From Myxococcota bacterium (lineage in GTDB: Bacteria > Myxococcota_A > UBA796 > CAJQPC01): a DNA stretch of 64,000 nucleotides. The DNA is taken from contig DASCPX010000112.1 in assembly GCA_036012755.1 (NCBI GenBank), forward strand, positions 1-64,000. The letters are read 5' to 3'. The notes beneath the pieces were generated by a model. That model was not told the origin of the DNA. It made no database searches and was given only the letters and a program-made list of their open reading frames with translations. The position numbers and the translations under genes were made by a program. Positions 4,845-59,993 of this stretch are shown in pieces. Each line of letters begins with the position of its first letter. Positions within the stretch are counted from its first letter, which is position 1.

Positions 4845-5678
4845 CTACCGCTCGATGCCGATCTCGGCGAGCTGATCGACCTGCAGCGGGACGACGCCGA
4901 AGGGCGTGTCGACGTCCATGTCCGCCTGGAAGTCCACCTCGAGCTTCTCTCCCTGGAGCACCGAGTAGAGCGCGACCCCCGCGTCGAGGAAGTCGATCTC
5001 GATGGGGATCGAGACGGTCTCGGTCGTGGCGCCGTCGACCGAACCGAGCTCGTCGATGAAGCCGCCGCCGATGTCCACACCGGCCAGCGCGATCTGGTAG
5101 TCGACGTTCTCGAAGAACAGGTTGCTGCCGTGTTCGTTGTCGACGTCGAGCTTCAGCGCCAGCTCGGCGCCGCTGATGTTCAGGTTCTTCAGCTTCAGCT
5201 TGTTCATCGTGAAGCCGGGACGGCGTGGGGCGGGGAAGCCGCCGTCTTCGTCGTATGGCACATCCAGCGGGCCCACCGGCGTGTCGAAGCCGAAGCTGCC
5301 GTCGAGCCCGAAGCCGATCTCGTCCTGGCCGCGTACCGCCTGCACCATGTCGAAGAGCGACTCGAACTCGATGCTCACCGGCAACGCCAGCTCGCTGGAG
5401 TCCTCTGCGCTCAGGACGAGACCGTCAGGGGAGTCGCCGCTGAGCCACTCGACCTGTTCGAAGGCCAGGGCGTAGTCGAAGCGAGCCATCGAGACGTCGA
5501 TCGGGTTGGGGTTGTCGACGTCGAAGAGGAAGTCGGCGTCGACCCCGTCCCAGTCGACGGCGAGCACGTCGATTCGCTGGAAGCTCACCTTCGGCAGGTA
5601 GGGGTCGAGCTCGAAGTCCTCCCAGCCCTCGCACGCGGTGAGCAGCGGGACGAGGACGAGGGGGAAGAGGCGCTTCAT
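4845..5678 (-). CDS. Lipoprotein with two LEA_2/WHy domains
   Basis: Lipobox LTAC; VDNPNPID motif and a second VDNEHG copy. Confidence 0.8.
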   Translation of the reverse strand: MKRLFPLVLVPLLTACEGWEDFELDPYLPKVSFQRIDVLAVDWDGVDADFLFDVDNPNPIDVSMARFDYALAFEQVEWLSGDSPDGLVLSAEDSSELALPVSIEFESLFDMVQAVRGQDEIGFGLDGSFGFDTPVGPLDVPYDEDGGFPAPRRPGFTMNKLKLKNLNISGAELALKLDVDNEHGSNLFFENVDYQIALAGVDIGGGFIDELGSVDGATTETVSIPIEIDFLDAGVALYSVLQGEKLEVDFQADMDVDTPFGVVPLQVDQLAEIGIER

Positions 5679-7165
5679 CGGAAGATTCCTTCGGCCTGCA
5701 CCACCGAGTACTCGGAGAGTCCCACGCTCATGGCGGCGACTTCCTCATCGATGTCTGCCTGCTCCGGATCGGGTGTCTGATCAGCGGAGTAGACGAGCGG
5801 CGTCGGGGAATCTTCGGTCAGGGCTGCGGCGAGGGCCTCGCCGTCGTTCGTCACGACGACGATTCGCAGGTCATCAGGCCGGATGTGGCGCTTCAGCGCG
5901 GCGTTGACACCTTCGAGGGTCACCTCGCCCAGGGCCGCAGGGAGCTCCTCCAGCATGTTCGGGAGGTCCAGGGCCTCTGCCTCGACGGCGTAGGCGAGGC
6001 GCGTGCCGGGATCCTGGGCCCAGATCTTCGCCCTCATCTGCAGGTAGGCACCGATCCGGTCGAACTCCTCCTGGGTGAGTCCCTCCTCGACGAGGTCCTC
6101 GGTCAGCTTGAGGGCCATCTTCAGTGCCCACGGGCCGTTGTCGACGGCGATGGGTCGCAGCCACACGGAGAACTGCGGTTGGCGCCGGACGGTTCCCTGC
6201 TCCTGGGCGCTGGTCCAGCCACGCTGCACGTAGTGCTCCACGTAGGCGTAGTCGCCATAGTTGAGGCCTCGGGCCGTCCGGATCTCCCCATACAGGCGGC
6301 CATGGGACTGGCGGTGTTCGCCGAAGGCGATCATCGCGAGGAAGAGCTCGGGGAAGTCCTCGTGGGCCCGATCCACGTCGAGGGGGTGGCCGAAGTGGAC
6401 ACCGAGTGAGGTCGTGGACTTCTCCACCGCGAGGAGGTGCCGGCCCTCGACATCGGGGCGTGGCTTGGGTGTGGCCTCGGGGCCTCGTTCCGGCGACAGG
6501 GTGGCGAAGGCGGCGGCGAAGGAGTCGGCGCCGGCTTGATCGACGGCGCCGGCGAGCCCGAGGGTCGTGGACGAGCGCACGTAGGTCGCGGCGTGGAAGG
6601 CCCGGAGGTCGTCCGCGTCGAGCAAGGGGAGCACCCCAGCGCGCCCTTCGACCGGGTGTCCGTAGGGGTGACCCTCGTTGATCCAGACATCGAAGACGTT
6701 GTCGCCGAGGCGCTCGTCGGACTCGAGCATCGACACCGTCAGGGCGTCTATGCCGGACTCGAGCAGGCGGGCGACGGCGTCGTCGTCGAAGGCGGGCCTG
6801 TTGACCATGTCCGTGAACAGGGGCACGAAGCGATCGGCGTCGCTCGCGAGGGCCTTGCCGCGGAAGGTGACGAGGTCCTTGTCGACGATGACCTCGATGT
6901 CGGCGGCGAGCTCGTAGAGCAGGGCGTCGACGGCCTCGGGGCCGAGTTCTCCGGAGCCGCCCTGACGCATGGCCTGCGCCGTCAGCCAGGCGATGCCCTC
7001 CTGGCCGACGGGATCGTAGGCGGAGCCTGCCTGTACGGTGGCCTGGAGGTAGATCAGCCGGCTGCCCTCTGTGGGCTGGAGCACGACCGCGTCAACCCGG
7101 GCGAGCTCCTCCACCGGGGTGAGGCCGCCGGGCGGGCCATGAATGCACGAGAGGAGCCAGAGCAT
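5675..7165 (-). CDS. M16 (pitrilysin-family) peptidase, non-catalytic subunit
   Basis: AGSAYDP..EGIAWLT without HxxEH; RLYGEIRTARGLNY; TGATG coupling to the upstream gene. Confidence 0.8.
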   Translation of the reverse strand: MLWLLSCIHGPPGGLTPVEELARVDAVVLQPTEGSRLIYLQATVQAGSAYDPVGQEGIAWLTAQAMRQGGSGELGPEAVDALLYELAADIEVIVDKDLVTFRGKALASDADRFVPLFTDMVNRPAFDDDAVARLLESGIDALTVSMLESDERLGDNVFDVWINEGHPYGHPVEGRAGVLPLLDADDLRAFHAATYVRSSTTLGLAGAVDQAGADSFAAAFATLSPERGPEATPKPRPDVEGRHLLAVEKSTTSLGVHFGHPLDVDRAHEDFPELFLAMIAFGEHRQSHGRLYGEIRTARGLNYGDYAYVEHYVQRGWTSAQEQGTVRRQPQFSVWLRPIAVDNGPWALKMALKLTEDLVEEGLTQEEFDRIGAYLQMRAKIWAQDPGTRLAYAVEAEALDLPNMLEELPAALGEVTLEGVNAALKRHIRPDDLRIVVVTNDGEALAAALTEDSPTPLVYSADQTPDPEQADIDEEVAAMSVGLSEYSVVQAEGIFR

Positions 7166-8484
7166 CAGCTGCCCTCCTCGGGGGGGACGAGCACCGCGAC
7201 GGTGCGGCCCTCTGGGACGAAGTAGGTCTCGACGACACGCTTGACGTCCTCTGGTCCCAGCGCTGCGTAGCCCTGGTACCACGCCTCGATGTCAGCGGGG
7301 TCCGCTCCACCCCTGGTGAAGTCCCCGATACGGTTGGCCACCGCCTTCGGGTCATCGAGCTCGATGGTGGTCCGCCGAAGGGCGTTGTTGCGAGCCGCGG
7401 CGACCGTGGCATCGTCGAGGACGAGGAGCGCGGCGAGCGCGGCTTCGATGTCCGCCTCCACCGCCGCGAGATCCTCTGGGTCCTTCACCACTGCGACGGT
7501 GACGAAGAGGTGTTCGTCCTCCATTCCCCAGTCCCCGCCGCTGACGGTGTAGACGCGGGCCTCGTCGACCACGAGCTTTCGATGGAGCGGTGCAACATCG
7601 CTGAAGAGCAGCTCACCGACCAGGTCCAGGGCCGCGGCGTCCGGCGAGGTCGGGGACCAGCCCGGGACCTTCCAGCCCATCATGAGGTGGGCGTTCACGG
7701 GACCCTGATCCCAGGCGACCTCCACCCGGCGGGCCGCCTCTTGGGGAGGCTCCTCGGGGATCTCCGGTGGCGCCTGGGTCGCGGGCTGCCAGCCGCCGTA
7801 GTGCCGCTCGATGGCGCCGAGGACCTCGCCCTTTTCGAAGTCCCCGGCCACGACGATGCGGGTGTTCTCCGGCCGATAGTGGATCGAGAAGAAGTCCTTC
7901 ACCAGCTCCACCTGGTTCGGCATCTCGAGGATGTCAGCCTCGTAGCCGATCGTGCTGTGGTGGTAGGTGTGGGTCGTGAAAGCGGTCTCGTAGAGCGCGT
8001 CGTAGATGCGGTCCCAGGGGTTCGTGAGCCCCTTTCTGTACTCGCCGTGGACAGCGCCGCTCTCCTTCGCCACCTGCTCCGGGGTGACATGGAGGTTCTG
8101 GAAGCGATCGGCCTCGATCGCGATCACCTCCAGGAGCGCGTCCGAGGCGACGACCTGGTGGTAGCAGGTGTCGTCGACCCACGTCCAGGCGTTCTCGTCG
8201 GCCCCGGTGAGCAGCATGCGCTCTTCCCGCTCCTCCCTGGGCAAGGCCTCGGAACCATAGAACATCAGGTGTTCGAAGAAGTGGGCGAAGCCGGTGGTTC
8301 CGGGTGCCACTTCGTCCTTCGAGCCTACCTCTACCCAGCTCTGGTACGAGACGACTCCGGGGGTGTCCATCGGGGCGAGGTAGATCGTCAAGCCATTGTC
8401 GAGGACGACACTGGCGACCGCTGTCGGCAGCGCCCCCGCAGAGGCAGTCCGGATGGGCATGATCAGCATGATTAGAGGGATCAT
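7165..8484 (-). CDS. M16 zinc peptidase, catalytic subunit
   Basis: VGSKDE..TGFAHFFEHLMF inverted zinc motif; NAWT. Confidence 0.9.
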   Translation of the reverse strand: MIPLIMLIMPIRTASAGALPTAVASVVLDNGLTIYLAPMDTPGVVSYQSWVEVGSKDEVAPGTTGFAHFFEHLMFYGSEALPREEREERMLLTGADENAWTWVDDTCYHQVVASDALLEVIAIEADRFQNLHVTPEQVAKESGAVHGEYRKGLTNPWDRIYDALYETAFTTHTYHHSTIGYEADILEMPNQVELVKDFFSIHYRPENTRIVVAGDFEKGEVLGAIERHYGGWQPATQAPPEIPEEPPQEAARRVEVAWDQGPVNAHLMMGWKVPGWSPTSPDAAALDLVGELLFSDVAPLHRKLVVDEARVYTVSGGDWGMEDEHLFVTVAVVKDPEDLAAVEADIEAALAALLVLDDATVAAARNNALRRTTIELDDPKAVANRIGDFTRGGADPADIEAWYQGYAALGPEDVKRVVETYFVPEGRTVAVLVPPEEGS

Positions 8485-9018: not shown

Positions 9019-9942
9019 TCACAGGAGGTGGCCTCGCCGCCGCCGGCGCAGTCGAACCTCGTCGCCCTCCTTCAGATCGTGGGTTGCGACCGCGCGGAGG
9101 GAGGCTCCGGCCACCTCGACGAGCGCGATGCGGACGCCTCCGGCGACCTCGATCGCCTTGACGATCCCTGGCAGATCACCCTCGGGGACGATCTCCAGGT
9201 CCTCTGGACAGAGCACCTCGAGGCCGCCATCGACCGGCAGCAGTCCGGCGGCGCCGACGAACTCGGCCACGAAGCGCTCGCTGGGTCGTCGCCGGAGCGC
9301 CTCGGGTGGACCGACCTGGACGATCCGGCCGGCTCGCATGAGCGCGATGTTGGAGCCAACGGCTGCGGCCTCGTCCTGGTCGTGGGTGACGAGCAGGACG
9401 GCGACCTCGGCAGCTCGCGCGATGCGGAAGACGTCTGTCCTGAGCTCCCCGCGAAGCGCTGGGTCGAGAGAGGCGAAGGGCTCGTCGAGCAGCAGCAGGT
9501 CGGGGCGCGGGGCCAGCGCGCGGCCCAGGGCGACCCGCTGCCGCTGGCCGCCGGAGAGCTCGTGGATCGGGCGCGAGGCCAGGCCGTCGAGGCGCAGGAG
9601 CGACAGGATCTCTCGCACTCGGTCGTCTGCGCCCTGCCGCTCGATGCCGAAGCGGACGTTCCCGGCGACGTCGAGGTGTGGGAACAGCGCCCCTTCCTGG
9701 AAGACGAGGCCGAGGCCGCGCGTGTGGGGCGGGTGGTCCGAGATGTCCCGATCGGCGAGGTGGATGCTGCCAGCGCTCAGCCTCTCCAGTCCGGCGATGG
9801 CCCGGAGCGTCGTGGTCTTGCCGCAGCCGCTGGGCCCCAGGAGCACGAGCACCTCTGAGGTGTCGAGATCCAGCGAGACGTCGTCCACGATGCGCACACC
9901 GCCGAGGTCGACGCACACTCCACGAAGGCTGAGGAGGCTCAT
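9019..9942 (-). CDS. Fe(III) ABC transporter ATP-binding protein (FbpC-like)
   Basis: GPSGCGKTT, LSGGQRQR, LLLDEP. Confidence 0.9.
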   Translation of the reverse strand: MSLLSLRGVCVDLGGVRIVDDVSLDLDTSEVLVLLGPSGCGKTTTLRAIAGLERLSAGSIHLADRDISDHPPHTRGLGLVFQEGALFPHLDVAGNVRFGIERQGADDRVREILSLLRLDGLASRPIHELSGGQRQRVALGRALAPRPDLLLLDEPFASLDPALRGELRTDVFRIARAAEVAVLLVTHDQDEAAAVGSNIALMRAGRIVQVGPPEALRRRPSERFVAEFVGAAGLLPVDGGLEVLCPEDLEIVPEGDLPGIVKAIEVAGGVRIALVEVAGASLRAVATHDLKEGDEVRLRRRRRGHLL

Positions 9943-11387
9943 GTGGTCTCCCGTCTCCAGAGGATCAGCGCCACGGCGGGCAGGGTGAAGGCGACCAGCA
10001 GCAGGGCCGAGGGTGCCATCTGCTCATAGTGGCTGTCCTTCGCGAAGCGCCAGATCTCAGAGGACAACGCTCGGGCGCCGAGGGGGCTCAACAGCAGCGT
10101 CGCCGGGAGCTCACGCAGCGCCGCGGTGAACACGAGGACCCAGCTGGCCAGCAGGGATCCCCGGAGCAGCGGCAAGGTCACGCGGAGCACGGCCCCGGGT
10201 GCGCTGGCGCCGAGCATGCGCGCGGCCTCTTCGAGGCGGCGAGGAGCCTGGGTGAGGCCCGCGCTCGTGGCCTGGAGCGCCTCTGGCAGGAAGCGCACCA
10301 GGTAGGCGAGCACGAGCACCACGACGGTGCCTTCGAGGCCGTGCCCGACCGCGCCGAGCCCGGCGAGCGCGATGAGCAGTCCCAGCGCGACGACCGGCCC
10401 CGGAAGGACGAAGCCGAGGGTCGCTCCCTGTCGCATCCAGGCGTGGAAGGGATCGCGCAGCCTCGAGGCACACCAGCCGAGGACCAGGGCCACCAAGACC
10501 GCCAGGGTGGCGGCGGAGGCCGCCCACAGCGCGGAGTTCGTCAGGGCCTCGAGGGCCTGGCCCCAGGCCCGGTGGTCCAGCGGGAGGTCCCGGGCGTGCC
10601 AGGCCGACCTGGCCACCACCAGGCCGGCGGTCGCTGAGAACACGGACAGCCCCAGGAACCAGGCCACCGCAGCCAGGGCCGGGGACCGGGCCGGCCGGCG
10701 GCGCGCGCCATCCTGCTCGTAGCGACCGGCCCCCCTCGCCTTGTGCTCGGCGAGGAAGACCGGAATCGCCAGCGCCAGCAGCACCATGGCCAACAGCGCG
10801 GCGCGGCTCCATGCCAGCGCCCGATCCTGACCCAGGTCGAGCTCGAAGTAGATGGCGCGGGTGAAGGTCCGGGCTCCCAGCGCCGAGACCGCGCCGAAGT
10901 CAGCGAAGGCGTAGAGCGCGACCAGGCAGAGGCCCGCGCCGATCGCCGGTCGCAGCGCCGGGATGACGACGCGGAGGGCCCGCCTGGCGGAGTCCAGGCC
11001 GAGGATCGCGGCGGCCTCCTCCATTCGCGGGTCGAGGCGCTCCATCGCCGGGCGTGTGACCAGGAGGACCAGCGGCGAGGTGCAGACGCCGAGCACGAGG
11101 CAGGCCACGGGGAGCTTGCCGTGCATCGGCGTGCCGACGAGGTCGAGCCAGGTCAGGGCGACGAGATAGGGCGGCACGGCCAGCGGCGAGGCGTACAGCG
11201 CCGTCAGGATCCATCGCCCGGGGGTCTGGACGCGAACCGAGAGCCAGGCACCAGCGAGCCCGAGCGCTCCAGCGACACAGGCGGAGCCCAGGGCCAACAG
11301 CAGGGTCGTGCCGACGAGATCCGCGATGCCCGTGGGCACCTCGCCGCCGGCGCCGAGCGCACGCACGACCACCGCCACGACCGGCAC
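9939..11387 (-). CDS. Fe(III) ABC transporter permease (FbpB-like); start uncertain
   Basis: Two EAA loops (MEEAAAILG, LEEAARMLG); RELPATLLL. Confidence 0.85.
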   Translation of the reverse strand: MPVVAVVVRALGAGGEVPTGIADLVGTTLLLALGSACVAGALGLAGAWLSVRVQTPGRWILTALYASPLAVPPYLVALTWLDLVGTPMHGKLPVACLVLGVCTSPLVLLVTRPAMERLDPRMEEAAAILGLDSARRALRVVIPALRPAIGAGLCLVALYAFADFGAVSALGARTFTRAIYFELDLGQDRALAWSRAALLAMVLLALAIPVFLAEHKARGAGRYEQDGARRRPARSPALAAVAWFLGLSVFSATAGLVVARSAWHARDLPLDHRAWGQALEALTNSALWAASAATLAVLVALVLGWCASRLRDPFHAWMRQGATLGFVLPGPVVALGLLIALAGLGAVGHGLEGTVVVLVLAYLVRFLPEALQATSAGLTQAPRRLEEAARMLGASAPGAVLRVTLPLLRGSLLASWVLVFTAALRELPATLLLSPLGARALSSEIWRFAKDSHYEQMAPSALLLVAFTLPAVALILWRRETT

Positions 11388-11436: not shown

Positions 11437-12378
11437 CTACTCGAGACCGACCTCCTGGATGAGGCGCACCGCGGTCGGCTGGGCCTCTGACAGGGCAGTC
11501 AGGGAGGTGGTCGACCACGCGAAGTCGTCGGGTGGAGTGACCCCCGGTGGTGGTGGGGCGCCCTGGACCGCGGGGTACTCGTTGTTCGAGTGGGCATAGG
11601 CGGCCTGTCCTTGTTCGCTCAGCAGCACCTCGAGCACCTTTCGGGCGCCCTCCGGGTTCGGGGCCCCGGCCAGGACCGCGCCGCCGGTCACGTTCCACGC
11701 AACGGGTTCCGGGTAGACGATGCGCAGGTTCTCCGCGTCAGAGCGGTAGAAGTAGTAGTGGTTGACGAGGGCGACGTCGGCGGTGCCCGCCGCGACCGCT
11801 GCGACAGCGGGGGTGTGCTTGGGGTGCACGTTGTCCCGGCTGTTGTCCTCGAGGCCCTGGAGGAAGGCGCGGGTCTCGTCCTCGCCCTGCTCCGCCACCA
11901 GGGTCGCGACGCCGCCGACGAAGCTCTCGTTGGTCGCGACCGTTCGGGCGACGCGACCCTCGTACTTCGGATCCGCTAGATCCAGGACGGTGGTCGGGGC
12001 GTCGTCGACGCCCTCGCGCGTCACCAACACCCGGGCACGCACCGACAGCCCGACCCAGTCCTCCCCGCGGTAGCGCTCCGGGACGCGGCCGAGGAGCTCT
12101 TCGTCCATGGGTGCGGCGAGCCCCGCGGTCGAGAGGGACTCCATGGTGCCGCTGGACTTGCTCAAGAAGAGGTCTGCCTTCGGGTCGCCGCCCCAGGCGG
12201 TCACGCGGTCCAGGTAGTTGTTGTCCATGCCGAAGTCCGTGATGACCTCGAGATCCGGGTGGCGCTCGGCGACGAGGGCCAGGAGGGCCTCGGCGAACTG
12301 CTCGTCGCGGCCGCTGAGGATCGTGACTGGCGCACTCTCGGGACCAGGCGTCGAACATGCGAGTGAGAGCAGGAGCAT
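11437..12378 (-). CDS. Fe(III) ABC transporter substrate-binding lipoprotein (FbpA/FutA-like)
   Basis: WVGLSVRARV, ALVNHYY iron-binding tyrosines, NNEYP; lipobox LAC. Confidence 0.85.
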   Translation of the reverse strand: MLLLSLACSTPGPESAPVTILSGRDEQFAEALLALVAERHPDLEVITDFGMDNNYLDRVTAWGGDPKADLFLSKSSGTMESLSTAGLAAPMDEELLGRVPERYRGEDWVGLSVRARVLVTREGVDDAPTTVLDLADPKYEGRVARTVATNESFVGGVATLVAEQGEDETRAFLQGLEDNSRDNVHPKHTPAVAAVAAGTADVALVNHYYFYRSDAENLRIVYPEPVAWNVTGGAVLAGAPNPEGARKVLEVLLSEQGQAAYAHSNNEYPAVQGAPPPPGVTPPDDFAWSTTSLTALSEAQPTAVRLIQEVGLE

Positions 12379-13710: not shown

Positions 13711-14553
13711 GTGCTGCTGCTCTTGATATCGCTGAGTGCCTGCGCGGGCGATGCCCCCGGTGCGAGCACCAGCGGCTCGGGGCGTTTGGTCGCCGTCGGT
13801 GATCTCCACGGCGATCTCGATGCTTCCCTGGCGGTCCTCCAACTCGCTGGCCTGGTCGATGAGTCTGGGGCCTGGAGCGGGGACAACGCCACCCTGGTCC
13901 AGACTGGCGACACGACCGACCGGGGCCCGGACAGCAAGGGCGTGTTGGAGCTCATGAAGCGCCTCCAGAAGGAGGCCCCAGGGGACGGAGGGCGCGTCGT
14001 GCCGCTGCTGGGAAACCACGAGGTCATGAACCTCACGGGCGACTGGCGCTACGTCAGCGAGGACGACCTGGCCGGTTTTGGTGGCGCCGAAGCGCGCAAG
14101 GCTGCCTTCGGCGCTGACGCGGAGCTCGGCGGTTGGATGCGAGGCCTCGACATCGTCGCCGTGGTGGAGCGCGTCGCTTTCGCTCACGGTGGCGTCACGC
14201 CCGAGTACGCCAAGCTGGGAGTCGACGCGATCAATGGGCTCTTGGCGACCCCCGAAGTCCTTGGGAACAGCTCGCCGATCTGGTTCCGCGGCTACCTCCA
14301 GGGCCCGGAGCCGACGGCCTGCAAGACGCTGGAGCTGGCCCTGGTCGAGCTCGCCGCCGAGCGCATGGTCGTCGGCCACACCACGCAGGACTCCGGGGAG
14401 ATCGCCAGCCGCTGCAACGGAAAGCTCCTTGGCATCGACACCGGGATCTCGGCTCACTACGGGCGCAATCTGGCGGCCGTGGAGATCGTCGAGGGCGACG
14501 CAAAGGCCCTCTACCCATCGGGGACGGTCGATTTGCCGGACCCACGGCGTTAG
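13711..14553 (+). CDS. Calcineurin-like metallophosphoesterase lipoprotein (Shewanella-like phosphatase type)
   Basis: GDLHG, GDTTDRG, GNHE, HGG, VGHT and IDTG motifs. Confidence 0.9.
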   Translation: MLLLLISLSACAGDAPGASTSGSGRLVAVGDLHGDLDASLAVLQLAGLVDESGAWSGDNATLVQTGDTTDRGPDSKGVLELMKRLQKEAPGDGGRVVPLLGNHEVMNLTGDWRYVSEDDLAGFGGAEARKAAFGADAELGGWMRGLDIVAVVERVAFAHGGVTPEYAKLGVDAINGLLATPEVLGNSSPIWFRGYLQGPEPTACKTLELALVELAAERMVVGHTTQDSGEIASRCNGKLLGIDTGISAHYGRNLAAVEIVEGDAKALYPSGTVDLPDPRR

Positions 14554-14576: not shown

Positions 14577-17500
14577 ATGAATCGCCAGCCAGAAGACGTC
14601 TCTTCCCGCGTCTCGAAGGTGATGCGCGCCGCCAAGGACGCGGCCCTGACCCTTCCTGAGGCACAACGCTCGCACTTCCGTCGCTTCTGCCGCGCCGTCG
14701 CACGGCAGCTGCGGTCGCCCTACGTCGCGCGCCACGGGGTGAAGAACATCCCGCGTGAGCTGTTGGCGCTCTTCGCGACGTTTCAGGCCTGCCCCGAGGG
14801 GATGATCCAGGTGACGCTCGAGGCGGGAGACGACGGCATCACGCTGCTGCGCTCCAACATGCGCGATCAGTCCTTCATCGTGGACACGGTCCGGCTCCTG
14901 CTGGACCAGGTCGGTGCCTCCCTCCTCGGCGGCTTCAACGCGGTCGTCCTGGTCCAGCGGGACGCCGAGGGGTCGGTGCTCTCCTTGGACGGGGACGAGG
15001 GTCACCGCGAGTCGGTCGTCCAGTTCGAGATCGGCAACCTCCCCCCCGACACGCACGAGGACTTCGCTCGCCGCCTCGACGACAACCTGCGGTTGGCCCA
15101 CGCGATGGTCGCGGACTTCGGCCGGATGACGGGTTCGGTGGACGGCATCGCGGCTCTGTTCGGACGGACCGCGACCCGAGACATGGCCCGGGGAGAGGCC
15201 TACCGCGAGGGGGCCGAGTTCCTTCGCTGGTTGCTCGCGGACAACTTCGTCTTCATGGGCATGGTCGACGGTGACATTCGCCTCGGCATCGAGCGCGATG
15301 GCCTGGACGCCTGGACGCCCGTCGAGCGCCAGAGGCGCGTCGACTTCAACGGGGTCCCCGTCAACGTCCGCAAGGGCGCGGCCGAGTCCACGGTCCACCG
15401 GGCGGGGAGGGTCGACGAGATCCGCATCGAGGTGCCCGACGAAGCGGGCAGGCCCGATCGGATCGTGCTCCTGCTGGGCATGTTCACCTTCCGCGCCGTG
15501 ACCCAGGACAGCCGGAGCGTTCCGATCCTCCGCGGCGTCCTCGCCAGGATCCTGCGCGAGGACAACAGCCTGCCGGGTTCCTGGCGCTACAAGGGCGTCG
15601 CCAACGTCTTCGACAGCCTGCCGACCGAGTACCTCTTCACGGCTGACCACGACGAGACCCGCCTGATGATCGACCGCGTCCTCGACGCGGAGGCCGAGCG
15701 CGACGTGCGGGTCCTGCTCGTGCAGAAGTCGGACACCAACGTGACCTTCGTGCTCGGCGCCATGCCACGCGCGCAGTACGACGACGGCCTCCGCCGGCGG
15801 ATGGAGGGCCTGCTGATCTCCTCGACCGGGGCGACCTACCTCGACCACGGGGTGCTCGTCGGCCGCTTCGAGACGGTGCTGGTCCACTTCTACCTGACCG
15901 GCGCGCGCGAGCTCGCGCTAGAGGAACAGGACAACATCCGCGAGCGTCTCCGTGACATGGCGACGCCCTGGGACCAGCGTGTCTTCGACGCCCTGATCGC
16001 CACCCACGGCGAGGAGGAGGGCGACCGGCTCTTTGCCAGCTACGGCGGGGCCTTCGAGGATCGCTACGTTCGCCACGCGACCGCGCTGCGTGTGGTCAGG
16101 GACGTGGAGCACCTGGAGCTGCTCGAAGACGTGCGCCCGGTCGCCGCGACGCTCTTCGAGGACCGCAAGGGGCGCCTGTCCCTCAGGCTGTACCAGCGCA
16201 CCGACATCATCCTGAGCAAGTCACTTCCGGTCCTGACCAACTTCGGGCTGGTCGTGAGCGACCAGTACGCCGACACCGCCCACCCGCTGGGCGCCGGCGA
16301 GGTCGTGATGGACACCTTCCGGCTGAAGGGTGCATGGGGCCTGCTGCCCGCGGACATCATCGAGCGCGGCGGGCTGCTCACAGAGGCCGTCGAGGCCATC
16401 TTCACCGGCTCCGCAGAGGACGACGAGCTCAACCGTCTCGTGCTTCGAGCTGCGCTGCCCTGGCGGGACGTCGATCTGCTCCGCGCCTATCGCGGCCACC
16501 TCTTCCAGCTCGGCTTGTCACGCGCCCGGGTCACGGCGGTCTTCAGTCGGCACCCGGCCATCTGCGCCGCGCTGGTGCGCTACTTCCGCGCTCGCTTCGA
16601 TCCGAACCTCTCTGATGCCGCTCGCAAGAAGGCCGTCTCCAAGGCCGTCAACGCTGTCGACGATGGGCTCCGCAAGGTCTACGACGGCGCCCACGACTAC
16701 GTGCTGCGGTGTACCTACGACCTGATGCGCGGCACCGTTCGCACCAACTTCTTCCGGCCCGATCGCAAGCGTTGGTACATCAGCTTCAAGGTCGATCACG
16801 AGCTCGTCGACTTCATGCCCGAGGTGGGCCTGAAGTACGAGATCTACGTCCATCACCCGGAGATGGAGGGCATCCACTTCCGCGGCGGCAAGGTCGCCCG
16901 CGGTGGGCTGAGGTGGTCGGACCGCATCGACTATCGCACCGAGATCCTCGGGCTCGTCACGACCCAGATGGTCAAGAACGTGCTCATCGTCCCAGAGGGC
17001 GCCAAGGGCGGCTTCCGCCTCAAGGAGATCATCGAGGACCGCGGTCTTCGCCGCCGCCGCGCCGACGATCTCTACAAGTGGTTCATCCGGGCCCTGCTGG
17101 ACCTGACCGACAACCTCGTCGCCGGCGAGGTCGTCAACCCGCCTGGCGTGGTCATGTACGACGGCGCCGACGATCCCTACCTCGTCGTAGCCGCCGACAA
17201 GGGCACGGCGCACTTGAGCGACACCGCCAACGGCGTGGCTGTCGATGAGTACGGCCACTGGCTCGGCGACGCCTTCGCGAGCGGTGGCAGCCACGGCTAC
17301 GACCACAAGAAGGTGGGCATCACGGCGCGGGGTGCTTGGGAGTGCGTGAAGCGCCACTTCGCCGAGCTCGGGCTCGACCCCTCGACGGACGAGTTCACGG
17401 CCATCGGCATCGGCGACACCGGCGGCGATGTCTTCGGCAACGGGGTCGTCGAGTTCCCGAAGATGCGCCTGGTCGCGGCCTTCAACCACCTCCACGTCTT

Positions 17501-44213: not shown

Positions 44214-44247
44214 CAACGACGTCTAACCAGTGTGGGACGATGGCCGC

Positions 44248-45003
44248 GTGCTGCTTCTGCTGCTGGCTTGTGTGACGAACCTGCCCGACACCGGGACGGC
44301 CCCGGACTCGGAGGCCGAGGCTGATGCGGACGCGGACGCCGACAGCGACACCGACGCAGACGCAGACGGTGACACCGACGCGGACTCCGACGCTGACGGC
44401 GACGCCGACACCGACGCTGACGGGGACGCGGACAACTGCGTGATGCTCGCCGAGGATCTGCCTGGGAACAACGATGTCGTCGAGCGGGACCTGGGGTCGG
44501 TGGTCAGCGCCGGCGGGGCTCAGCTGTGGCTGAAGAACTTCGACCCCCCGAACCAGTCGAGTTCGGACAAGCACCACGTCTTCGCCGGTCGGACCGTAGA
44601 GGACGCCGGAGACGGTGGCGGGCCGGGTCAGACCGACTTCTGGCGCTTCCGGACCGGCCAGAACTACGGCGGCGGCGGTGACGGCACGATGAAGATCCTG
44701 ACCTCGAAGGAGCCCAACGGGCAGGAAGAGGATCGCCTGCTCGACGACTACGCCTGGGACACCTCCGCGACCTACACCCTGCGCGCGGAGTGGGGCGCCG
44801 ATGGCAACACCCGCTACGCGCTGGATGGCTCCGAGATCTGGTCCTTCGCCTGGGACGTGCCTCTGGACATCCGGTACATCTACGTCGGCAACGACGGCTA
44901 CCACGGCTACGCGACGACCCCCGACGCCCAGTACGTGCGGCTGGTGGCATGGCGCGGAGACAAGCCCGAGCACCTGGACTCTGCGGTCGCGGACTGCCCC
45001 TAA
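44248..45003 (+). CDS. Lipoprotein with (DA/DT)n acidic linker and beta-sandwich domain
   Basis: VLLLLLAC; DADADADSDTDADAD tract. Confidence 0.75.
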   Translation: MLLLLLACVTNLPDTGTAPDSEAEADADADADSDTDADADGDTDADSDADGDADTDADGDADNCVMLAEDLPGNNDVVERDLGSVVSAGGAQLWLKNFDPPNQSSSDKHHVFAGRTVEDAGDGGGPGQTDFWRFRTGQNYGGGGDGTMKILTSKEPNGQEEDRLLDDYAWDTSATYTLRAEWGADGNTRYALDGSEIWSFAWDVPLDIRYIYVGNDGYHGYATTPDAQYVRLVAWRGDKPEHLDSAVADCP

Positions 45004-45638: not shown

Positions 45639-46661
45639 CTAGTACCGGGCCTTCTCGCCGTTCCAGGTCCGCACCAGCCGCCCGTCGGGCACCCCGATGA
45701 CCAACTCGCGCACCCTCCCGCGGTCGTAGGGGAGCGGCAGGTACAGCGCATCGGAGCGCCAGCCGCCGTGGGAACGGCCCCACACCAGGCCGTGCCCGTA
45801 GCCCGCGCCTGTGGACTTGAAGAAGACCTCGGTTTCTCCCTCTGGGGAGATCCTGTAGAGCGAGCTGGTGTCGTAGTCCGCCGCCCAGAGGTAGCCGCAG
45901 GCGTCCATGCGAAGGCCGTCCTTCCACTGGCCTGGGGTCCTGGCGAAGCGCTCGAGTTCCCCGGTCGGGGCCAGGTTCTCGTCCAGCGGTGCCCGGTAGA
46001 TGTTCCCGTCGCCGACCCCCCCGACGTACAGCATGGTCGAGTCGAGGTTCAGCGTGAGCGAGTGGGCCATCCAGCTGTCGTTGGGGCCCTTCTCGAACAG
46101 CACCTCGAGCTCTCCGGACTCGGGGTCCAGCCGGAGCACGTTGCCGTCGGCGATCAGCAGGCTTCCGTCTGGAGCGAGCTCGAGGCCATAGCCCCAATAC
46201 AGGCCGCCCACGACGATCTCCGTGCCCCCCTCGGGCCACAGGCGGTAGACGGCGCCTTCCTCGAGCATCACCATGTAGACGGTGCCGTCGGGGTGGCGCT
46301 GCATCTGCTCGACCCCTCGGATGCCTGGCACGAAGGTCTCGTAGCCGTCGTCGTAGGCGGTCTTGGTCAGCGCGTTTCGACCGTCCCAGCCGACCAGCAT
46401 CCCGTCGTCGTCGAAGGCCATCCCGTGGTACGCGCGGGCACCGTCGAAGATCTTGTCGCCGACGGGCTCCGATGGCAGATCGTCGCAGTCGTACTCGAAG
46501 TCCGGGTAGGGCAGGGGGTCGCCGGGCTGGTAGCTGTCGCCCGTGTCCTCGGAGTCCACGGGTTGGGAGTCGTCCGGCGGCGTGGAGTCCACCGTCGAGT
46601 CGTCCGTTTGCGTGATCGGACCGACGCTGGGGGGCGAGCAGCACAAGAGAGCGATGAGCAT
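45639..46661 (-). CDS. SMP-30/gluconolactonase-like beta-propeller lipoprotein
   Basis: HGMAFDDDG; DGLRMDACGYLW; LYRISPEG. Confidence 0.8.
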   Translation of the reverse strand: MLIALLCCSPPSVGPITQTDDSTVDSTPPDDSQPVDSEDTGDSYQPGDPLPYPDFEYDCDDLPSEPVGDKIFDGARAYHGMAFDDDGMLVGWDGRNALTKTAYDDGYETFVPGIRGVEQMQRHPDGTVYMVMLEEGAVYRLWPEGGTEIVVGGLYWGYGLELAPDGSLLIADGNVLRLDPESGELEVLFEKGPNDSWMAHSLTLNLDSTMLYVGGVGDGNIYRAPLDENLAPTGELERFARTPGQWKDGLRMDACGYLWAADYDTSSLYRISPEGETEVFFKSTGAGYGHGLVWGRSHGGWRSDALYLPLPYDRGRVRELVIGVPDGRLVRTWNGEKARY

Positions 46662-49182: not shown

Positions 49183-49680
49183 CTACCTCTGGAGCGTCGG
49201 GAGGGTGAGGCGCTCCGCCAGCGATGCCGCCTTGTCCGGCTCCATGCTGGCCAGCACCTTGCCTGCCTTCGAGGTGTTCATGCCGTCGAGCACCTCTACG
49301 GCGAGGTCCTCTTCCAGCTCCGCGACGAAGGTGCCCGCGTCGCTGGCGCGCATGGACTCCACCATCTTGATCAGCGCGCGGACGCGAGCCTTGCGGACCT
49401 CGTCACCGTCGTCGAGCAGGGTCTCGATCTCCGAGCGGAGAGTCTCGAGCTCGACCAGGCGCTCCTCGATGCGGGTCTCGACCTCGCGCAGCTCGGCCTC
49501 GCGGGCCTCTGCGCTGGCCTCGCGTCGGTCAAGGGCACGCTCGCGAGTCTCCAGCCGGTCGACGAGCTCCTGCATGCCGCGGGTGTCCCCCTCGGGCCAG
49601 GAGGCAGCCTCGGCGAGCGGGACCCCCTCGTCCTGGCCGATCGCGGAGCCGCAGCCGCACAAGAGGGCCAAGAGCAGCAT
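49183..49680 (-). CDS. MotE/FlbB-like flagellar protein
   Basis: Coiled coil then LIKMVESM..AG..L..M..KAGKVLASMEP; lies between fliJ and fliK. Confidence 0.8.
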   Translation of the reverse strand: MLLLALLCGCGSAIGQDEGVPLAEAASWPEGDTRGMQELVDRLETRERALDRREASAEAREAELREVETRIEERLVELETLRSEIETLLDDGDEVRKARVRALIKMVESMRASDAGTFVAELEEDLAVEVLDGMNTSKAGKVLASMEPDKAASLAERLTLPTLQR

Positions 49681-52559: not shown

Positions 52560-54455
52560 ATGCTGCTCGTCATCCTGTCCCTCGGCTGCCGCAACAAGGA
52601 CTACACGGCCGACAGCGCCGGCATCTCAGAGGACACCGCGCCGGTCTACGAGGACCTCGACGGCGACGGGGTGACAGGGGAGACCGACTGCGACGACGGG
52701 GACCCCGCGCGCTTCCCCGGCAACACCGAGACGCCCTACAACGGCGTCGACGACGACTGCGACGAGTCCACCCTCGACGACGATCTGGACGGGGACGGCT
52801 ACCTCGGCGCGGACGACTGCAACGACCTCGACGGCGACGTGCACCCCGACGCGGTGGAGTTCTGCAACGGCGTCGACGACGACTGCGACGGCGAGATCGA
52901 CGACGCGGTCGGCGGCACCTGGTACGCGGACGACGACGGTGACGGCTTCGGTGACCCCGACGCCAGCTCCCAGTCCTGCGAGGCGGGGGACGGGCAGGTG
53001 GCGGACGCCACGGACTGTGACGACTCGGATGCCGACGTGAACCTGGCGGCGGACGAGGTCTGCAACGGTGTCGACGACGACTGTGACGGAGAGGTGGACG
53101 CCGACGCGCTGGACATGACTACCTGGCTCATCGACACGGACGGAGACGGCTTCGGTGACGACGACGACACGGTGGAGTCCTGCGACAGCTGCAGCGCATG
53201 CGTGACCGAGGGCGGGGACTGCGACGACGACGACGGCGACGTGCACCCCGACGCGGACGAGGTCTGCAACGGCGTCGACGACGACTGCGACGGTGACGTC
53301 GACCCGGACGACTCCCTCGACGTGGAGACCTGGTACGCGGACGCGGACTCTGACGGCTTCGGCGCCGCCGACTACCCCACAGAGGCATGCGACCAGCCCA
53401 CGGGCCACGTCGCCGACGACACCGACTGCGACGACTCCGACTCCGACATCTGGCCAGGCGCGACGGAGGTCTGCAACGACGTGGACGACGACTGCGACGG
53501 CGACGTCGACGAGGGGGTGCTGTCGTCCTGGTTCCTCGACGCCGACGGTGACGGCTATGGCGACGGGGCCGCGGTGGAGGGCTGCGACGCCCCGACCAGC
53601 GCCTATGTCGCTGTCGACGGGGACTGCGACGACACGGACACGGCCTACAGCCCGGGCGCCACCGCCGGCTGCGACGGAGAGGACTACGACTGCGACGGCA
53701 GCGTCGACAACGACGCCGACGGCGATGGCTACGCGGACTCGGCTTGCGGTGGGGACGACTGCGACGACTCAGACGCCAGCATCAAGCCCGAGCGCACCGG
53801 CGACTGCGCGCTGGGCACCAGCTGCGATGACATCCTGGGGGCCGGGTACTCCAGCGGCGACGGCAACTACACCATCGACGTCGACGGCTACAGCACCGGA
53901 GAGGACCCCGAAGAGGTCTACTGCGACATGAACACCGCCAGCGGCGGCTGGACGCTCATCGCCACCAACGCCAGCGGTGGCTACTGGAGCAGCACGACCG
54001 TGGTCGGCGACACTGCCAGCGGCAGCGTCTCCACGAGCACCGACTACAAGGCCGAGGCCTGGTCGACCCTGGCGTTCACCGACCTGATGTTCGACGACGG
54101 CACCGACTACGCCGTCTACCTGGCCGTCGACTCGGGCTCGAACACCTACTACGACTTCCAGGCCGCCATCCCGGTCCACAACTGCGGGGACTCCGACGGC
54201 TACTCCTACTCGCTCTCGAGCGGGAGCTTCGCGGGCGACTGCAACACGAACCTCTACTTCCACGCCATCGACGTCGACGGCGGCTACAACTCGACCTGCA
54301 GCGAGACCTACACCTACACGAACAACGCCTACGGCCCCAACTGGAGCGCCGGCAACAACGACGGCTGCCCGATGGACGACCCCTACTACTCGAGCTTCAT
54401 GTACGACTCGCTCGGCGTCTGGAGTGGCGACCCGCTGTTGATGTTCGTGCGCTGA
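52560..54455 (+). CDS. Lipoprotein with Cys/Asp putative metal-binding (MopE-related) repeats and C-terminal fibrinogen-like domain
   Basis: Repeated DCDD...E.CNGVDDDCDG and WY.D.DGDGFG units; SC..I...G.Y.ID...VYCDM...GGWTLI. Confidence 0.85.
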   Translation: MLLVILSLGCRNKDYTADSAGISEDTAPVYEDLDGDGVTGETDCDDGDPARFPGNTETPYNGVDDDCDESTLDDDLDGDGYLGADDCNDLDGDVHPDAVEFCNGVDDDCDGEIDDAVGGTWYADDDGDGFGDPDASSQSCEAGDGQVADATDCDDSDADVNLAADEVCNGVDDDCDGEVDADALDMTTWLIDTDGDGFGDDDDTVESCDSCSACVTEGGDCDDDDGDVHPDADEVCNGVDDDCDGDVDPDDSLDVETWYADADSDGFGAADYPTEACDQPTGHVADDTDCDDSDSDIWPGATEVCNDVDDDCDGDVDEGVLSSWFLDADGDGYGDGAAVEGCDAPTSAYVAVDGDCDDTDTAYSPGATAGCDGEDYDCDGSVDNDADGDGYADSACGGDDCDDSDASIKPERTGDCALGTSCDDILGAGYSSGDGNYTIDVDGYSTGEDPEEVYCDMNTASGGWTLIATNASGGYWSSTTVVGDTASGSVSTSTDYKAEAWSTLAFTDLMFDDGTDYAVYLAVDSGSNTYYDFQAAIPVHNCGDSDGYSYSLSSGSFAGDCNTNLYFHAIDVDGGYNSTCSETYTYTNNAYGPNWSAGNNDGCPMDDPYYSSFMYDSLGVWSGDPLLMFVR

Positions 54456-55379: not shown

Positions 55380-57020
55380 GTGACGTTGTTGCTCGCCGCC
55401 TGCGCAGGGTCGGGTCAGCTCGGGCTCGCCGAGCCGGCGGACAGCGCCGTGGAGAGCGTCCCCGGGATTCACCCAGACGGCGACCCCACCGATGTGGTCT
55501 TCGACACCGAGCGCATCTCCTCCATCGAGCTCGACATGGCTCCGGAGGACTGGCTGAGCGTACGGGACGACCCCTGGTCCAAGGCATGGGTCCCGGCCGT
55601 GTTCAGGTGGAACGGCGAGGAGGTCGCCGACGTCGCGGTCCGGGCCTTCGGCTACGGCAGCATCAGGGTGGGCAAGCCCTCGCTGAAGGTGAGCTTCGAT
55701 CGCATCGTCGAGAGGCAGCTCTGGCGGGAGCTCGACGAGCTCAAGCTGGACAACTCCTCACAGGACCCCGGCTACCTCAACGAGTGCATCGCCACGGCGA
55801 TAGTCCGCCGCGCGGGCCTCCCCGCTGCCCGCACCGGCTGGGCCGAGGTCAGCGTCAACGGCGACGCCGCCGGCTTCTTCGTGGTGCTGGAGTCCATCGA
55901 CGACCGCTTCGTCGAGCGCTGGTTCGGCCACGACGATGGCGCCCTGTACGGCACTCGCGACCACCAGTACGGTCACGGCCTGAACCCCACGGACGACCCC
56001 CTCGTCTACTACGAAGCCCAGACCAGCAAGGGGGGAGACGGCACGGATCTGGCCCACTTCATCGAGCTCGTCTCCGAGGGCAGCGACGACGACCTGGCAG
56101 CAGCCGTGGACCTCGAGGGCTTCTTCGGGGTGAGCGTCGCCCGGTCGATGATGGGCTCGATGGACGCCTTTTCGGCCGACGGAAACAACTTCTACCTCTA
56201 CAACGACCACGACCGATTGCGGCTGGTGCCCTGGGACTTCGACGTCGATCTCGGCGGCTACTACCTCTCGACCGCGCTCACCGTGGATCCGCGGGCCCCC
56301 TGGGCCACCTCGCCCTGGTCTGCGGACTCGGTGACCGGCGCTCCCTACATGGACCCGGTGCTCCTGCGGAGCCTGGCCATGGGCTACGACCCGGACCCGC
56401 TCGTCGAGGAGCTGCTGGCGGGGCCCTTCGACTGGGCCTCCGTCGACGCCGAGGCCGCCGCCGCAGCGGTCCTGATCCGCGACGCCGTCGGACGCGACGT
56501 GCTCGGGGATCTCTCTACCTTCGACCAGCGCGCGGCTGACCTGCGTCTGTTCGTCCACAGTCGCCTGGCCGGACTGGCCGGTGGCGAGGTGGCCGACTGT
56601 CCGGAGACCGACCTGCTGCAGGCGGCCGACCTCGTGGACTCGGGCACGGTGGGGTGGGGGAGTCTCCTGGTGGACAGCACCAACTGGGGCCCGGGCTTCA
56701 ACGTGAACGGGGTGCACACCTGCACCGGCGTGTTCGCCCACGCGCCGAGCACCGTGTCGCTGACCATTCCCGAGAGCGGCCAGATCAGCGGAGCCGTGGG
56801 CTTGCAGGACTGGAACCAGCGCTGCGGGGACGGCGCCACCTTCTCCATCGTCCAGGCCGACGAGGTCCTGTGGCAGAGCTCCACGCTCCAGACCTACGAC
56901 CCCTCAGAGGCCTTCGACGTCGAGGTCAGCGCGGGGTCCCTGACGCTGCAGGCCGGTGCAGGCGGCGACTACTCCTGCGACACCACGGTCTGGTTGGATC
57001 TGGCCCTTCAGCCGGGGTAG
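55380..57020 (+). CDS. CotH kinase-family lipoprotein with C-terminal NPCBM domain
   Basis: KPSLKVSFD, LKLDN..QDP, NNFYLY, PWDFD; GVFAHAPS..GAVG..TFSI. Confidence 0.85.
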   Translation: MTLLLAACAGSGQLGLAEPADSAVESVPGIHPDGDPTDVVFDTERISSIELDMAPEDWLSVRDDPWSKAWVPAVFRWNGEEVADVAVRAFGYGSIRVGKPSLKVSFDRIVERQLWRELDELKLDNSSQDPGYLNECIATAIVRRAGLPAARTGWAEVSVNGDAAGFFVVLESIDDRFVERWFGHDDGALYGTRDHQYGHGLNPTDDPLVYYEAQTSKGGDGTDLAHFIELVSEGSDDDLAAAVDLEGFFGVSVARSMMGSMDAFSADGNNFYLYNDHDRLRLVPWDFDVDLGGYYLSTALTVDPRAPWATSPWSADSVTGAPYMDPVLLRSLAMGYDPDPLVEELLAGPFDWASVDAEAAAAAVLIRDAVGRDVLGDLSTFDQRAADLRLFVHSRLAGLAGGEVADCPETDLLQAADLVDSGTVGWGSLLVDSTNWGPGFNVNGVHTCTGVFAHAPSTVSLTIPESGQISGAVGLQDWNQRCGDGATFSIVQADEVLWQSSTLQTYDPSEAFDVEVSAGSLTLQAGAGGDYSCDTTVWLDLALQPG

Positions 57021-57065: not shown

Positions 57066-57428
57066 ATGACCACCTCGAACCTGCGTTCCTTGTCGCTGCT
57101 CCTTCTGGTGGGCCTGTCGTTGTCCTGTGGCGACAAGGATGATCCGGGCGACTCCTCGGCCGAAGCAGACGCCGACACCGACTCGGACACCGACTCCGAC
57201 TCGGACACCGACACGGATCCGAGCAACTGTGGGGATGGGGTCGACAACGACGGCGATGGCTGGATCGATGAACACTACCCGGACTGCGCGAGCTCGTCAC
57301 ATGAGACGGGCTACGGCTCCACCGAGTGCAATGACGGTGCCGACAACGATGCGGACGGCTACGTCGACGCCGCCGACGCAGGCTGCGAGTCCGCAGACGA
57401 TGACGACGAGGCCGAGTCGCGCGAGTGA
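57066..57428 (+). CDS. Small acidic lipoprotein with DxDxD tract and two C.DG.DND.DG..D repeats
   Basis: LSLSC lipobox; NCGDGVDNDGDGWID; ECNDGADNDADGYVD. Confidence 0.8.
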   Translation: MTTSNLRSLSLLLLVGLSLSCGDKDDPGDSSAEADADTDSDTDSDSDTDTDPSNCGDGVDNDGDGWIDEHYPDCASSSHETGYGSTECNDGADNDADGYVDAADAGCESADDDDEAESRE

Positions 57429-57652: not shown

Positions 57653-58138
57653 TCAGTCCAGCTCGGCTTCGATCGTGCCGACGAAGGTCGAGGTGCCGTA
57701 GTTGCCCCAGTCCATCTCGGTCTCCCACGCCGCCTCGAAGTCGCCGTCGTCGGCCTCTCCCTCCAGGCTGCTTTCGTAGGGCTCGTCGCTGCCCCAGCTC
57801 ATCTCGAAGACCACCTCCCCGCTGATGGTGCCGTCCTCGTCCACCTGGCCAACGACGTCGACCGGGATCTCCGATCCGCCCCACTCGCTCGAGCAGAGCA
57901 TGCTGGCTTCGAAGGAGCCCTCGTCCTCGTCGACCGTGAAGGTGGCCTCGCCGGTGCAGTAGTCGTATTCGTAGTCCTCGCTCTCGATGATGACCGTGCC
58001 CTCGTAGTCACCGCTGAAGGGGTGGACGGTCTCCTCCTCCTCGCCCGAGTCGTCGTTCGATGGGCCCGTGCCGTCGCCTTGCTCGTCGAGCGTGACGGAT
58101 CCGAAGCTGCAGGCCAAAAGGGACAGCATTGCGATCAT
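57653..58138 (-). CDS. Acidic beta-rich lipoprotein
   Basis: AGGAGG RBS; LLAC lipobox. Confidence 0.75.
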   Translation of the reverse strand: MIAMLSLLACSFGSVTLDEQGDGTGPSNDDSGEEEETVHPFSGDYEGTVIIESEDYEYDYCTGEATFTVDEDEGSFEASMLCSSEWGGSEIPVDVVGQVDEDGTISGEVVFEMSWGSDEPYESSLEGEADDGDFEAAWETEMDWGNYGTSTFVGTIEAELD

Positions 58139-59180: not shown

Positions 59181-59204
59181 GTTCCTTGGGGTCGGGATTG
59201 GACG

Positions 59205-59414: not shown

Positions 59415-59519
59415 GGACACCCCTTGGTTGTCCTCAAGCTATGCGCCAGGGAGCCCGGGAATGTCTCGGACGGGTCTCAGAGACGCTATTCTGTGCGCGC
59501 AGGGTGCGTGAGGAAGCCG

Positions 59520-59993
59520 ATGACCCTCCTCTTGATCGCCTGTGGGGATCCCTCCACCGGGGATCCCTCCACCGGGGATCCCTCCACCGACGACTCCGCC
59601 AACAGCACCGTCTGTCCGCTGCCCGAAGGGGCCGTGGAGCTGGAGTGGGCCGAGTTCGATTCCCCCTGCGGGGGCTCTACCGATGTCGGCACGCTCAGCT
59701 CCGAAGAGGAGTTCGTCGGGGCCTACGGCTGCGCATCGGACATCGACTGGGAGACCTGGCGGCTCGTGGGCTTCGCAGAGGTCATCGACATCCCGAACGC
59801 CCGGGTCACCAGCGTCTACTCCAGCGAGGGCGCGACCACGGTGATGACCGAGGTCCACACCTGGTGCGGGGGCTACGACCCGGAGGGTGCGATGCTCGAG
59901 CAGACAGTGCTCGTCCCGGTCTCCGAGGAGCCCGTGGCGCTTCGTGTGTGCGAGTACGGCGGCTGCGACTGGGACAGCCAGCCGCCGCCCTGA
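59520..59993 (+). CDS. Cys-containing hypothetical lipoprotein
   Basis: MTLLLIAC; (GDPST)3 linker. Confidence 0.7.
   Translation: MTLLLIACGDPSTGDPSTGDPSTDDSANSTVCPLPEGAVELEWAEFDSPCGGSTDVGTLSSEEEFVGAYGCASDIDWETWRLVGFAEVIDIPNARVTSVYSSEGATTVMTEVHTWCGGYDPEGAMLEQTVLVPVSEEPVALRVCEYGGCDWDSQPPP
59544..59588 (+). repeat. 15-bp tandem repeat GGGGATCCCTCCACC x3
   Basis: Three exact in-frame copies. Confidence 0.95.

Follow-up and report, generated by a model that had tools for sequence, protein, structure and literature searches.

The window analysed here is a 64,000-nucleotide stretch of a Myxococcota bacterium genome (positions 1 to 64,000 of contig DASCPX010000112.1; G000:C112:1-64000), from an assembly of 6.73 Mb with 68% GC and 95.95% completeness, in which no SSU rRNA was found. 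Many of its genes begin with a lipoprotein-like signal consisting of a few uncharged hydrophobic residues and a lipobox-type Cys, with no basic n-region. A first-pass annotation had listed ten such N-terminal motifs, and all ten were found in place, eight with firm starts and two (44248 and 59520) with ambiguous ones. At least four further short lipobox starts (13711, 49680, 52560 and 58138) lie in the window, and two genes with canonical lipoprotein signals served as internal controls. In the list below, Cys7 denotes a Cys at residue 7, and a start is termed forced where no in-frame ATG, GTG or TTG lies upstream of it.

5675 to 7165, minus strand: M16 peptidase-family protein, MLWLLS-C (7145-7165), Cys7; TGATG overlap, GAGG Shine–Dalgarno (SD) motif
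11437 to 12378, minus strand: ABC solute-binding protein (Pfam SBP_bac), MLLLSLA-C (12355-12378); forced start
28084 to 29565, minus strand: beta-lactamase-family (PF00144) protein, MIALSLA-C (29542-29565); forced start, GGAG SD motif
38790 to 40163, minus strand: sulfatase-family paralogue, MILLLA-C (40143-40163); ATGA coupling, nearest upstream start scoring -14.5
40160 to 41530, minus strand: sulfatase-family paralogue, MTLLLIA-C (41507-41530); ATGA coupling, GGAG SD motif
41527 to 42885, minus strand: sulfatase-family paralogue, MIWLLA-C (42865-42885); forced start and ATGA coupling
44248 to 45003, plus strand: protein with no Pfam family, (V)LLLLLA-C with an acidic AD repeat behind it; ambiguous between GTG starts at 44230 and 44248
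45639 to 46661, minus strand: SMP-30/gluconolactonase-like protein, MLIALL-C-C (46638-46661); forced start
55380 to 57020, plus strand: CotH/NPCBM protein, (V)TLLLAA-C (55380-55403)
59520 to 59993, plus strand: protein with no Pfam family, MTLLLIA-C (59520-59543); start ambiguous
13711 to 14553, plus strand: metallophosphoesterase with a short signal, Cys11; extra member
42882 to 44213, minus strand: sulfatase-family protein with the short uncharged signal MFLLLQCLGA-C; absent from the first-pass list
49183 to 49680, minus strand: MgtE_N-domain protein in a flagellar cluster, MLLLALLCG-C; extra member
52560 to 54455, plus strand: MopE-repeat protein, MLLVILSLG-C, Cys10; extra member
57653 to 58138, minus strand: protein with no Pfam family, MIAMLSLLA-C, Cys10; extra member
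4845 to 5678, minus strand: LEA_2 protein with the canonical lipoprotein signal MKRLFPLVLVPLLTA-C, Cys16; internal control
59994 to 61886, minus strand: YfbK/vWA protein with a canonical lipoprotein signal, Cys19 and Arg3; internal control

Four of the ten listed starts are thus forced (12378, 29565, 42885 and 46661), and the coupling to an upstream stop codon that had been claimed for several of them is borne out at 7165, 40163, 41530 and 42885. The alternative upstream start of the gene at 7165 is strongly negative (coding score -29.8), and the sole alternative at 55380 is a TTG 72 codons upstream with a coding score of -20.1. For the gene at 44248, the GTG six codons upstream would yield MWDDGRVLLLLLAC; at 59520 a GTG four codons upstream would yield MRKPMTLLLIAC (Cys12, basic; a 12-residue signal), with SD spacing favouring the ATG.

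To place the window in its genome, genes were called across the assembly using a dicodon (codon-model) caller that is blind to signal peptides. This gave 5,901 genes, of which 429 were removed to leave an analysis set of 5,472 (at least 80 amino acids and a score of at least 10). In the window the caller agreed with the first-pass start in nine of ten cases, the exception being 44248, where it preferred the upstream GTG. The short class was defined as Met, uncharged hydrophobic residues and [A/G/S]C, with Cys at positions 6-11, and 23,635 internal Met residues provided the background. On this basis 709 of the 5,472 genes, about one in eight, carry a short lipobox start, where about 7 would be expected, so that the first-pass description of these signals as pervasive holds for the whole genome. 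Lipobox Cys residues peak at positions 7, 8, 9 and 10 (127, 254, 168 and 108 genes), where the internal-Met controls predict 1-2 per position (0.9, 1.9 and 0.9 for the first three). Short lipobox starts are beyond chance, and they outnumber canonical basic lipoprotein signals, of which there are about 103. The proposed length of 6-7 residues before the Cys is right as a mode, which lies at 7, and too narrow as a limit, since the genome range is 5-10 residues (Cys6-11 in the forced set). The floor is sharp at Cys7, with 20 genes at Cys6 and 124 at Cys7. When all forced lipobox hits were taken together (n = 473), Cys lay at or before position 11 in 376 and at or beyond position 14 in 72.

The composition of these signals could be followed residue by residue. 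The lack of a basic n-region is confirmed, Lys or Arg preceding the Cys in 0 of 127 signals at Cys7, 0 of 254 at Cys8 and 2 of 168 at Cys9. Among hydrophobic starts selected without any filter on the -1 position, Ala, Gly or Ser occupied it in 691 of 744 (93%). Leu stands at -2 in 441 of the 709, the hydrophobic (h) region being merged with the lipobox, and mean Kyte–Doolittle (KD) hydropathy of the h-region is 2.69 for short signals against 2.33 for canonical ones. Short signals occur on 62 of 62 contigs of at least 30 kb, which rejects contamination or a single genomic island, and fall into 511 sequence families, 433 of them singletons; they are therefore not one expanded family. Export by the twin-arginine translocation (Tat) route was likewise rejected, as the short signals contain no Arg or twin-Arg and the roughly ten Tat-like motifs found lie on other genes.

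Whether the starts are real was judged from the surrounding DNA. Of the 709, 369 are forced, 248 are both forced and ATG, and 208 remain forced under all table-11 start codons; in 157 an in-frame stop lies so close that no start codon could give as many as 15 residues before the Cys. For the 369, the objection that true starts lie upstream and give canonical signals is refuted. The upstream DNA of short-signal starts is non-coding. Canonical-looking upstream starts were found in frame in 77 of the 709, against 101 and 103 in the two shifted frames, and hydrophobic or basic residues are no more frequent at the upstream codons than in the shifted frames. GC content at third codon positions rises at the start from about 0.6 to about 0.87: upstream, at codons -8 to -2, it lies between 0.49 and 0.65, and from codon 2 onwards between 0.81 and 0.91. 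Predicted mRNA folding is weakest at the start (350 of the 709 sampled), an SD motif precedes 43% of short-signal starts against 14% of internal ATG codons, and the upstream dicodon score (-0.45) is near that of other genes (-0.39), a score that the caller itself optimises; the other measures, which are not direct targets of the caller, agree with it.

Homologues tell of signals that shrink around a conserved Cys. Of 56 homologues of the window's ABC binding protein, the 7 closest begin, by database gene calls, with uncharged Cys7-8 signals. At 48-56% identity most have basic signals with the lipobox Cys at 16-23, and three have Cys9. In homologues of the M16 protein (5675 to 7165) from relatives the Cys lies at 7-13 from the start, and the lipobox Cys is kept among homologues as the signal shortens.

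The distribution of the trait among relatives was surveyed with a DNA pattern encoding Met-hydrophobic-x-x-hydrophobic-hydrophobic-Ala-Cys. This pattern gave 98 hits in the source genome (G000), 96 in one close relative and 0-8 in 29 unrelated genomes. Within the order, 14 of 59 genomes had at least 30 hits (high genomes hereafter), against 0 of 341 outside it; no more than 10 were counted in any of the 18 genomes from the class's other orders, and no more than 17 in any of the 323 remaining phylum members. When genes were called on 40-200 kb from each of 14 relatives, small samples of kin that are not independent, the numbers of short/intermediate/long lipoprotein signals were as follows: G202 10/2/1, G014 9/1/3, G282 7/0/3, G387 5/2/4, G217 6/5/3, G177 4/0/2, G050 5/2/11, G020 3/7/9, G327 1/1/2, G092 2/0/1, G112 0/1/2, G067 0/0/8 and, in each of two class outgroups, 0/0/2; a check on G000 gave 21/1/4. 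The trait is thus confined to one order, in which it is graded and patchy. A single origin was rejected, as high genomes are spread over separate branches of a SecY tree (34 rows, backbone unresolved; no formal clade test was made). A BamD-like protein has an uncharged signal in G000 and G202 and a basic one in most of 29 homologues, those from high genomes included, which indicates that single genes shorten independently. BamD is normally a lipoprotein. The BamD/YfiO-like protein here (G000:C149:39842-40588, minus strand) carries a signal peptidase I (SPase I)-type signal without a lipobox Cys, as it does in most of the class; a lipobox-like Cys is present in only 3 of the 29 homologues (L248-L276), those of G217, G162 and G347.

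The cargo of the short signals looks extracytoplasmic in type. In the window it comprises an ABC solute-binding protein, sulfatases, a PF00144 hydrolase, an M16 peptidase, and CotH and MopE-repeat proteins, and genome-wide short signals are found on 3 of 6 SBP_bac_5 proteins. The mature part has an even number of Cys residues in 317 of 455 short-signal proteins, 44 of 63 canonical lipoproteins and 672 of 1,411 cytoplasmic-like proteins (70% short versus 48% cytoplasmic-like), and in 149 of 224 of the forced set; this excess, like that of canonical lipoproteins, points to disulphides. The linker after the Cys is acidic and rich in Pro, Ser, Thr and Gly (0.57 for short and 0.54 for canonical signals, 0.38 for others), and a transmembrane (TM)-like segment was seen in just 5 of the 709.

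A parallel class of short signals lacks the Cys. Uncharged SPase I-type signals of 8-14 residues without Cys number 255 against 18 expected, and in 404 Cys-less starts, taken without a cleavage filter, Ala peaks at 0.25-0.36 at positions 8-11. Such signals are present on 6 of 6 Omp85 hits (a BamA-like protein with a forced start and five others), on 2 of 2 LolA proteins and on 3 of 6 TonB-receptor hits mapped. One example lies in the flagellar cluster of the window:

32454 to 33176, minus strand: Cys-less short SPase I-type start, MLTLLTTLALA-QDP

Since SPase I-type signals are shortened too, the trait is not specific to lipoproteins. Canonical signals persist alongside, for example on a Pal-like OmpA protein.

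The first-pass annotation had proposed an unusual export or lipidation specificity and suggested inspection of the machinery. Short uncharged signals across the lineage, on exported-type proteins, uphold the core of that idea; special machinery finds no sequence support in Lgt, LspA, SPase I, SecA or SecY. The genome encodes five Lgt, two LspA, Lnt, three SPase I, SecA, SecY, Ffh, FtsY and YidC, together with Map, Fmt and two deformylases. Copy number does not vary with the trait: in all 30 genomes compared, low-trait and other-order genomes included, there are 3-7 Lgt, 1-3 LspA and 1-6 SPase I, and expansion of these enzymes as the cause was rejected because the numbers overlap across high, low and outgroup genomes. 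Judged by eye and for G000 only, SecA gave a normal alignment with solved SecA proteins, that of E. coli among them, so an altered SecA was rejected; a second SecA was rejected as well, the motif match at G000:C227:1115-2698 (L009) belonging to an IS66 transposase, on a contig of 2.9 kb. In SecY and LspA (one LspA copy taken per genome), the 10-11 high and the 8 low genomes are not told apart by any column. In Ffh a single Lys/Arg column (K270R) does set them apart; the change is conservative and was treated as chance. Among side observations, a tandem lspA-lspA-lgt-lgt operon lies at G000:C59:99967-103069, the H/Y-G-G motif of three of the five Lgt paralogues (L004, L006 and L007) was not matched by the pattern used, and in two Lgt paralogues R-L-G-C-F-x-x-H-D-H-P-G replaces the Cys-rich motif.

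SecY does carry an order-wide change, in TM5. Across 28 sequences of the order (27 genomes including G000, plus L025; secY loci L010:880-2229 and L110-L137), Ala or Ser stands at the position of E. coli I187 in 28 of 28 and Thr at that of F192 in 26 of 28, so that the signature G-N-G-[A/S]-S-L-I-I-T replaces G-N-G-I-S-x-I-I-F. In 77 outgroup sequences (of 79 loci) position 187 is Ile in 53, Thr in 19, Val in 2 and Ala or Ser in 3, and position 192 is never Thr; two class-outgroup sequences have Ile at 187 and Phe at 192. The small-residue pattern matches 57 of 59 order genomes and also 74 of 341 outside genomes, many of those matches not being SecY. By numbering counted from the E. coli alignment, F67, I82, I86, I191, I278 and I408 are intact. 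The order also shows 13 other order-specific SecY columns and a long stem branch. This TM5 change is a weak lead and would be at most permissive.

Set beside known systems, the short signals (stubs) share several features with canonical signal peptidase II (SPase II) signals of the E. coli Lpp type as outlined in PMC8048626: a hydrophobic stretch, a small -1 residue, an invariant Cys, Leu at -3 and a disordered acidic linker after the Cys, with Lgt, LspA, Lnt and LolA all encoded here. They differ in having no basic n-region, 5-10 rather than at least 15 residues before the Cys, and mostly Leu at -2, outside the standard [ASTVI]. The Cys-less class has the hydrophobic core, Ala-X-Ala-type site and outer-membrane or periplasmic cargo of SPase I signals, but at about 9-13 residues and uncharged; for E. 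coli, the relevant part of PMC5963308 gives a median length of 22 residues, the shortest signals having 15-16. Failing on length, charge and strict lipobox, the stubs are not classed as canonical members; by the other sequence tests available they appear to resemble SPase II and SPase I signals. No account of such short uncharged signals was found in the literature, in a search that reached few subscription papers, nor did a word search bring up a SecY or deformylase mechanism.

The reading that we consider probable is that the stubs are compacted Sec signals, exported and lipidated by ordinary SecYEG, Lgt, LspA and Lnt. Their very hydrophobic core (mean KD 2.7) would suffice for targeting, the Cys would reach the outer leaflet and be diacylglycerylated, and LspA would cleave at the small -1 residue before Lnt acylation, as in the established pathway described in PMC8048626, where Sec export is followed by modification by Lgt at the outer leaflet, cleavage by LspA and acylation by Lnt. 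Lgt and LspA work close to the periplasmic side of the membrane, so a stub this short could be enough provided that it does not have to extend to the cytoplasm, which would be easiest, speculatively, if the N-terminus stays formylated. In one such scheme, which is possible though we would lean against it, the signal recognition particle (SRP) would bind the stub co-translationally and N-formyl-Met would be kept, leaving a chargeless peptide of 6-8 residues that need not span the bilayer. SRP binding is described in PMC5454389 as blocking deformylation, and deformylase as preferring Lys or Arg at position 3; a hydrophobic N-terminus without either is a predicted poor substrate, as here, although the cases shown there (LepB, DsbA and TolB) have signals of normal length. 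Shortening would have arisen gene by gene, to differing degrees, in several branches of the one order.

Several points weigh against compaction with ordinary processing. Stubs of 6-8 residues are too short for a membrane-spanning helix and fall far short of the 15-16 residues that are the minimum in E. coli, and with a mean of 4.5 strongly hydrophobic residues, against 7.7 in canonical signals, they may not offer SRP enough of these. The strict lipobox [LV][ASTVI][GAS]C is matched by 138 of 709 short signals against 46 of 103 canonical ones, and the SPase I-type set shows no excess of even Cys counts (78 of 151). The caller sometimes clips canonical signals at internal GTG or TTG codons, as hits with Cys3-5 seem to reflect; since it may thereby place a start within a longer signal, the count of 709 is an upper one. 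The absence of Lys or Arg at position 3 (0 of 709) follows from the selection filter and is no evidence.

Other explanations were weighed against the same data. A natural prl-like SecY allele, in which A/S187 and T192 of TM5 relax the translocon and lineages exploit it to different degrees, is unlikely in our view. Known prl alleles carry polar substitutions in the pore ring or plug, I408N, F67 and similar, and I187 is presumably one of the six pore-ring Ile residues. The occurrence of A/S187 in 28 of 28 members of the same order to which the trait is confined speaks for such an allele, as does prlA4, which restores export of defective signals (PMC11470409, as excerpted). Yet the change is equally present in the canonical-signal genomes G067 and G112, I82, I86, I191, I278 and I408 are intact, variation at position 187 is also seen elsewhere, and the pattern reaches 74 of 341 outside genomes; the long stem branch and the 13 other order-specific columns make coincidence easy. 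Suppression by prlA4 is alike in that feature-poor signals are exported via SecYEG (PMC11470409 and PMC8612361, in the sections consulted), but here most of the secretome would natively depend on it, with I408 and the core ring wild type. Less probable still is non-standard processing, with the stub retained as a short anchor, with or without a Cys lipid, or handled by a specialised Lgt or LspA paralogue. The few strict lipoboxes (138 of 709), the five Lgt and two LspA genes and the three Lgt paralogues without H/Y-G-G under the pattern used would fit it. The 93% of unfiltered starts with A/G/S at -1, as LspA cleavage needs, and the Ala at 8-11 in the parallel SPase I class do not, nor do paralogue counts that fail to follow the trait or the lack of any LspA column that splits high from low.

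Mis-called starts, with canonical signals translated from upstream, are a very improbable account of the class. An upstream in-frame start does exist in 340 of the 709, two window starts (44248 and 59520) are ambiguous and some signals are truncated by the caller; but it is physically impossible for the 157 genes noted above, 208 starts are forced under all table-11 codons, the upstream codons are non-coding, the database calls for the 7 closest ABC binding protein homologues give the same starts, and the same caller yields canonical signals in G067, G026 and G007. Beyond compaction as such, a stronger version would have the order run most of its secretome on neutral formylated stubs of 6-11 residues, about half the accepted minimum length, without n-region and never membrane-spanning, helped by the loosening of SecY TM5; from the sequence comparisons made here we regard this as doubtful.

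The remaining features of the window concern its neighbourhoods. Downstream of the ABC binding protein lie its two partners:

9939 to 11387: permease partner (Pfam BPD_transp_1)
9019 to 9942: ATPase partner (Pfam ABC_tran)

The four tandem sulfatase-family genes (38790-44213, minus strand) are joined by ATGA and sit within a flagellar gene cluster of about 29.6-50 kb. Long acidic Ala-Asp, Ser-Asp or Thr-Asp repeats follow the Cys at 44248-45003 and at 57108-57428 (plus strand), with no Pfam family, and comparable repeats are found at other places in the genome. At 14622-19256 (plus strand) lies a gene of 1,544 codons whose coding score is very high.

What a signal peptide minimally requires is an old question, and the answers have come mostly from mutating individual E. 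coli proteins. This lineage offers several hundred independent natural minimal signals (511 families), homologue series running from canonical signals down to seven residues, and sister genomes that either have or lack the trait; all these signals could be expressed in E. coli. If the standard machinery does suffice, a basic n-region and a membrane-spanning helix would be dispensable for export and lipidation; if it does not, the missing factor would be clonable by complementation. Were the stronger, formylated version true, it would mean a separate, minimal way of targeting proteins to Sec and maturing lipoproteins. Either way, rules based on length and charge would mis-annotate up to about one-sixth of the proteins of these genomes.

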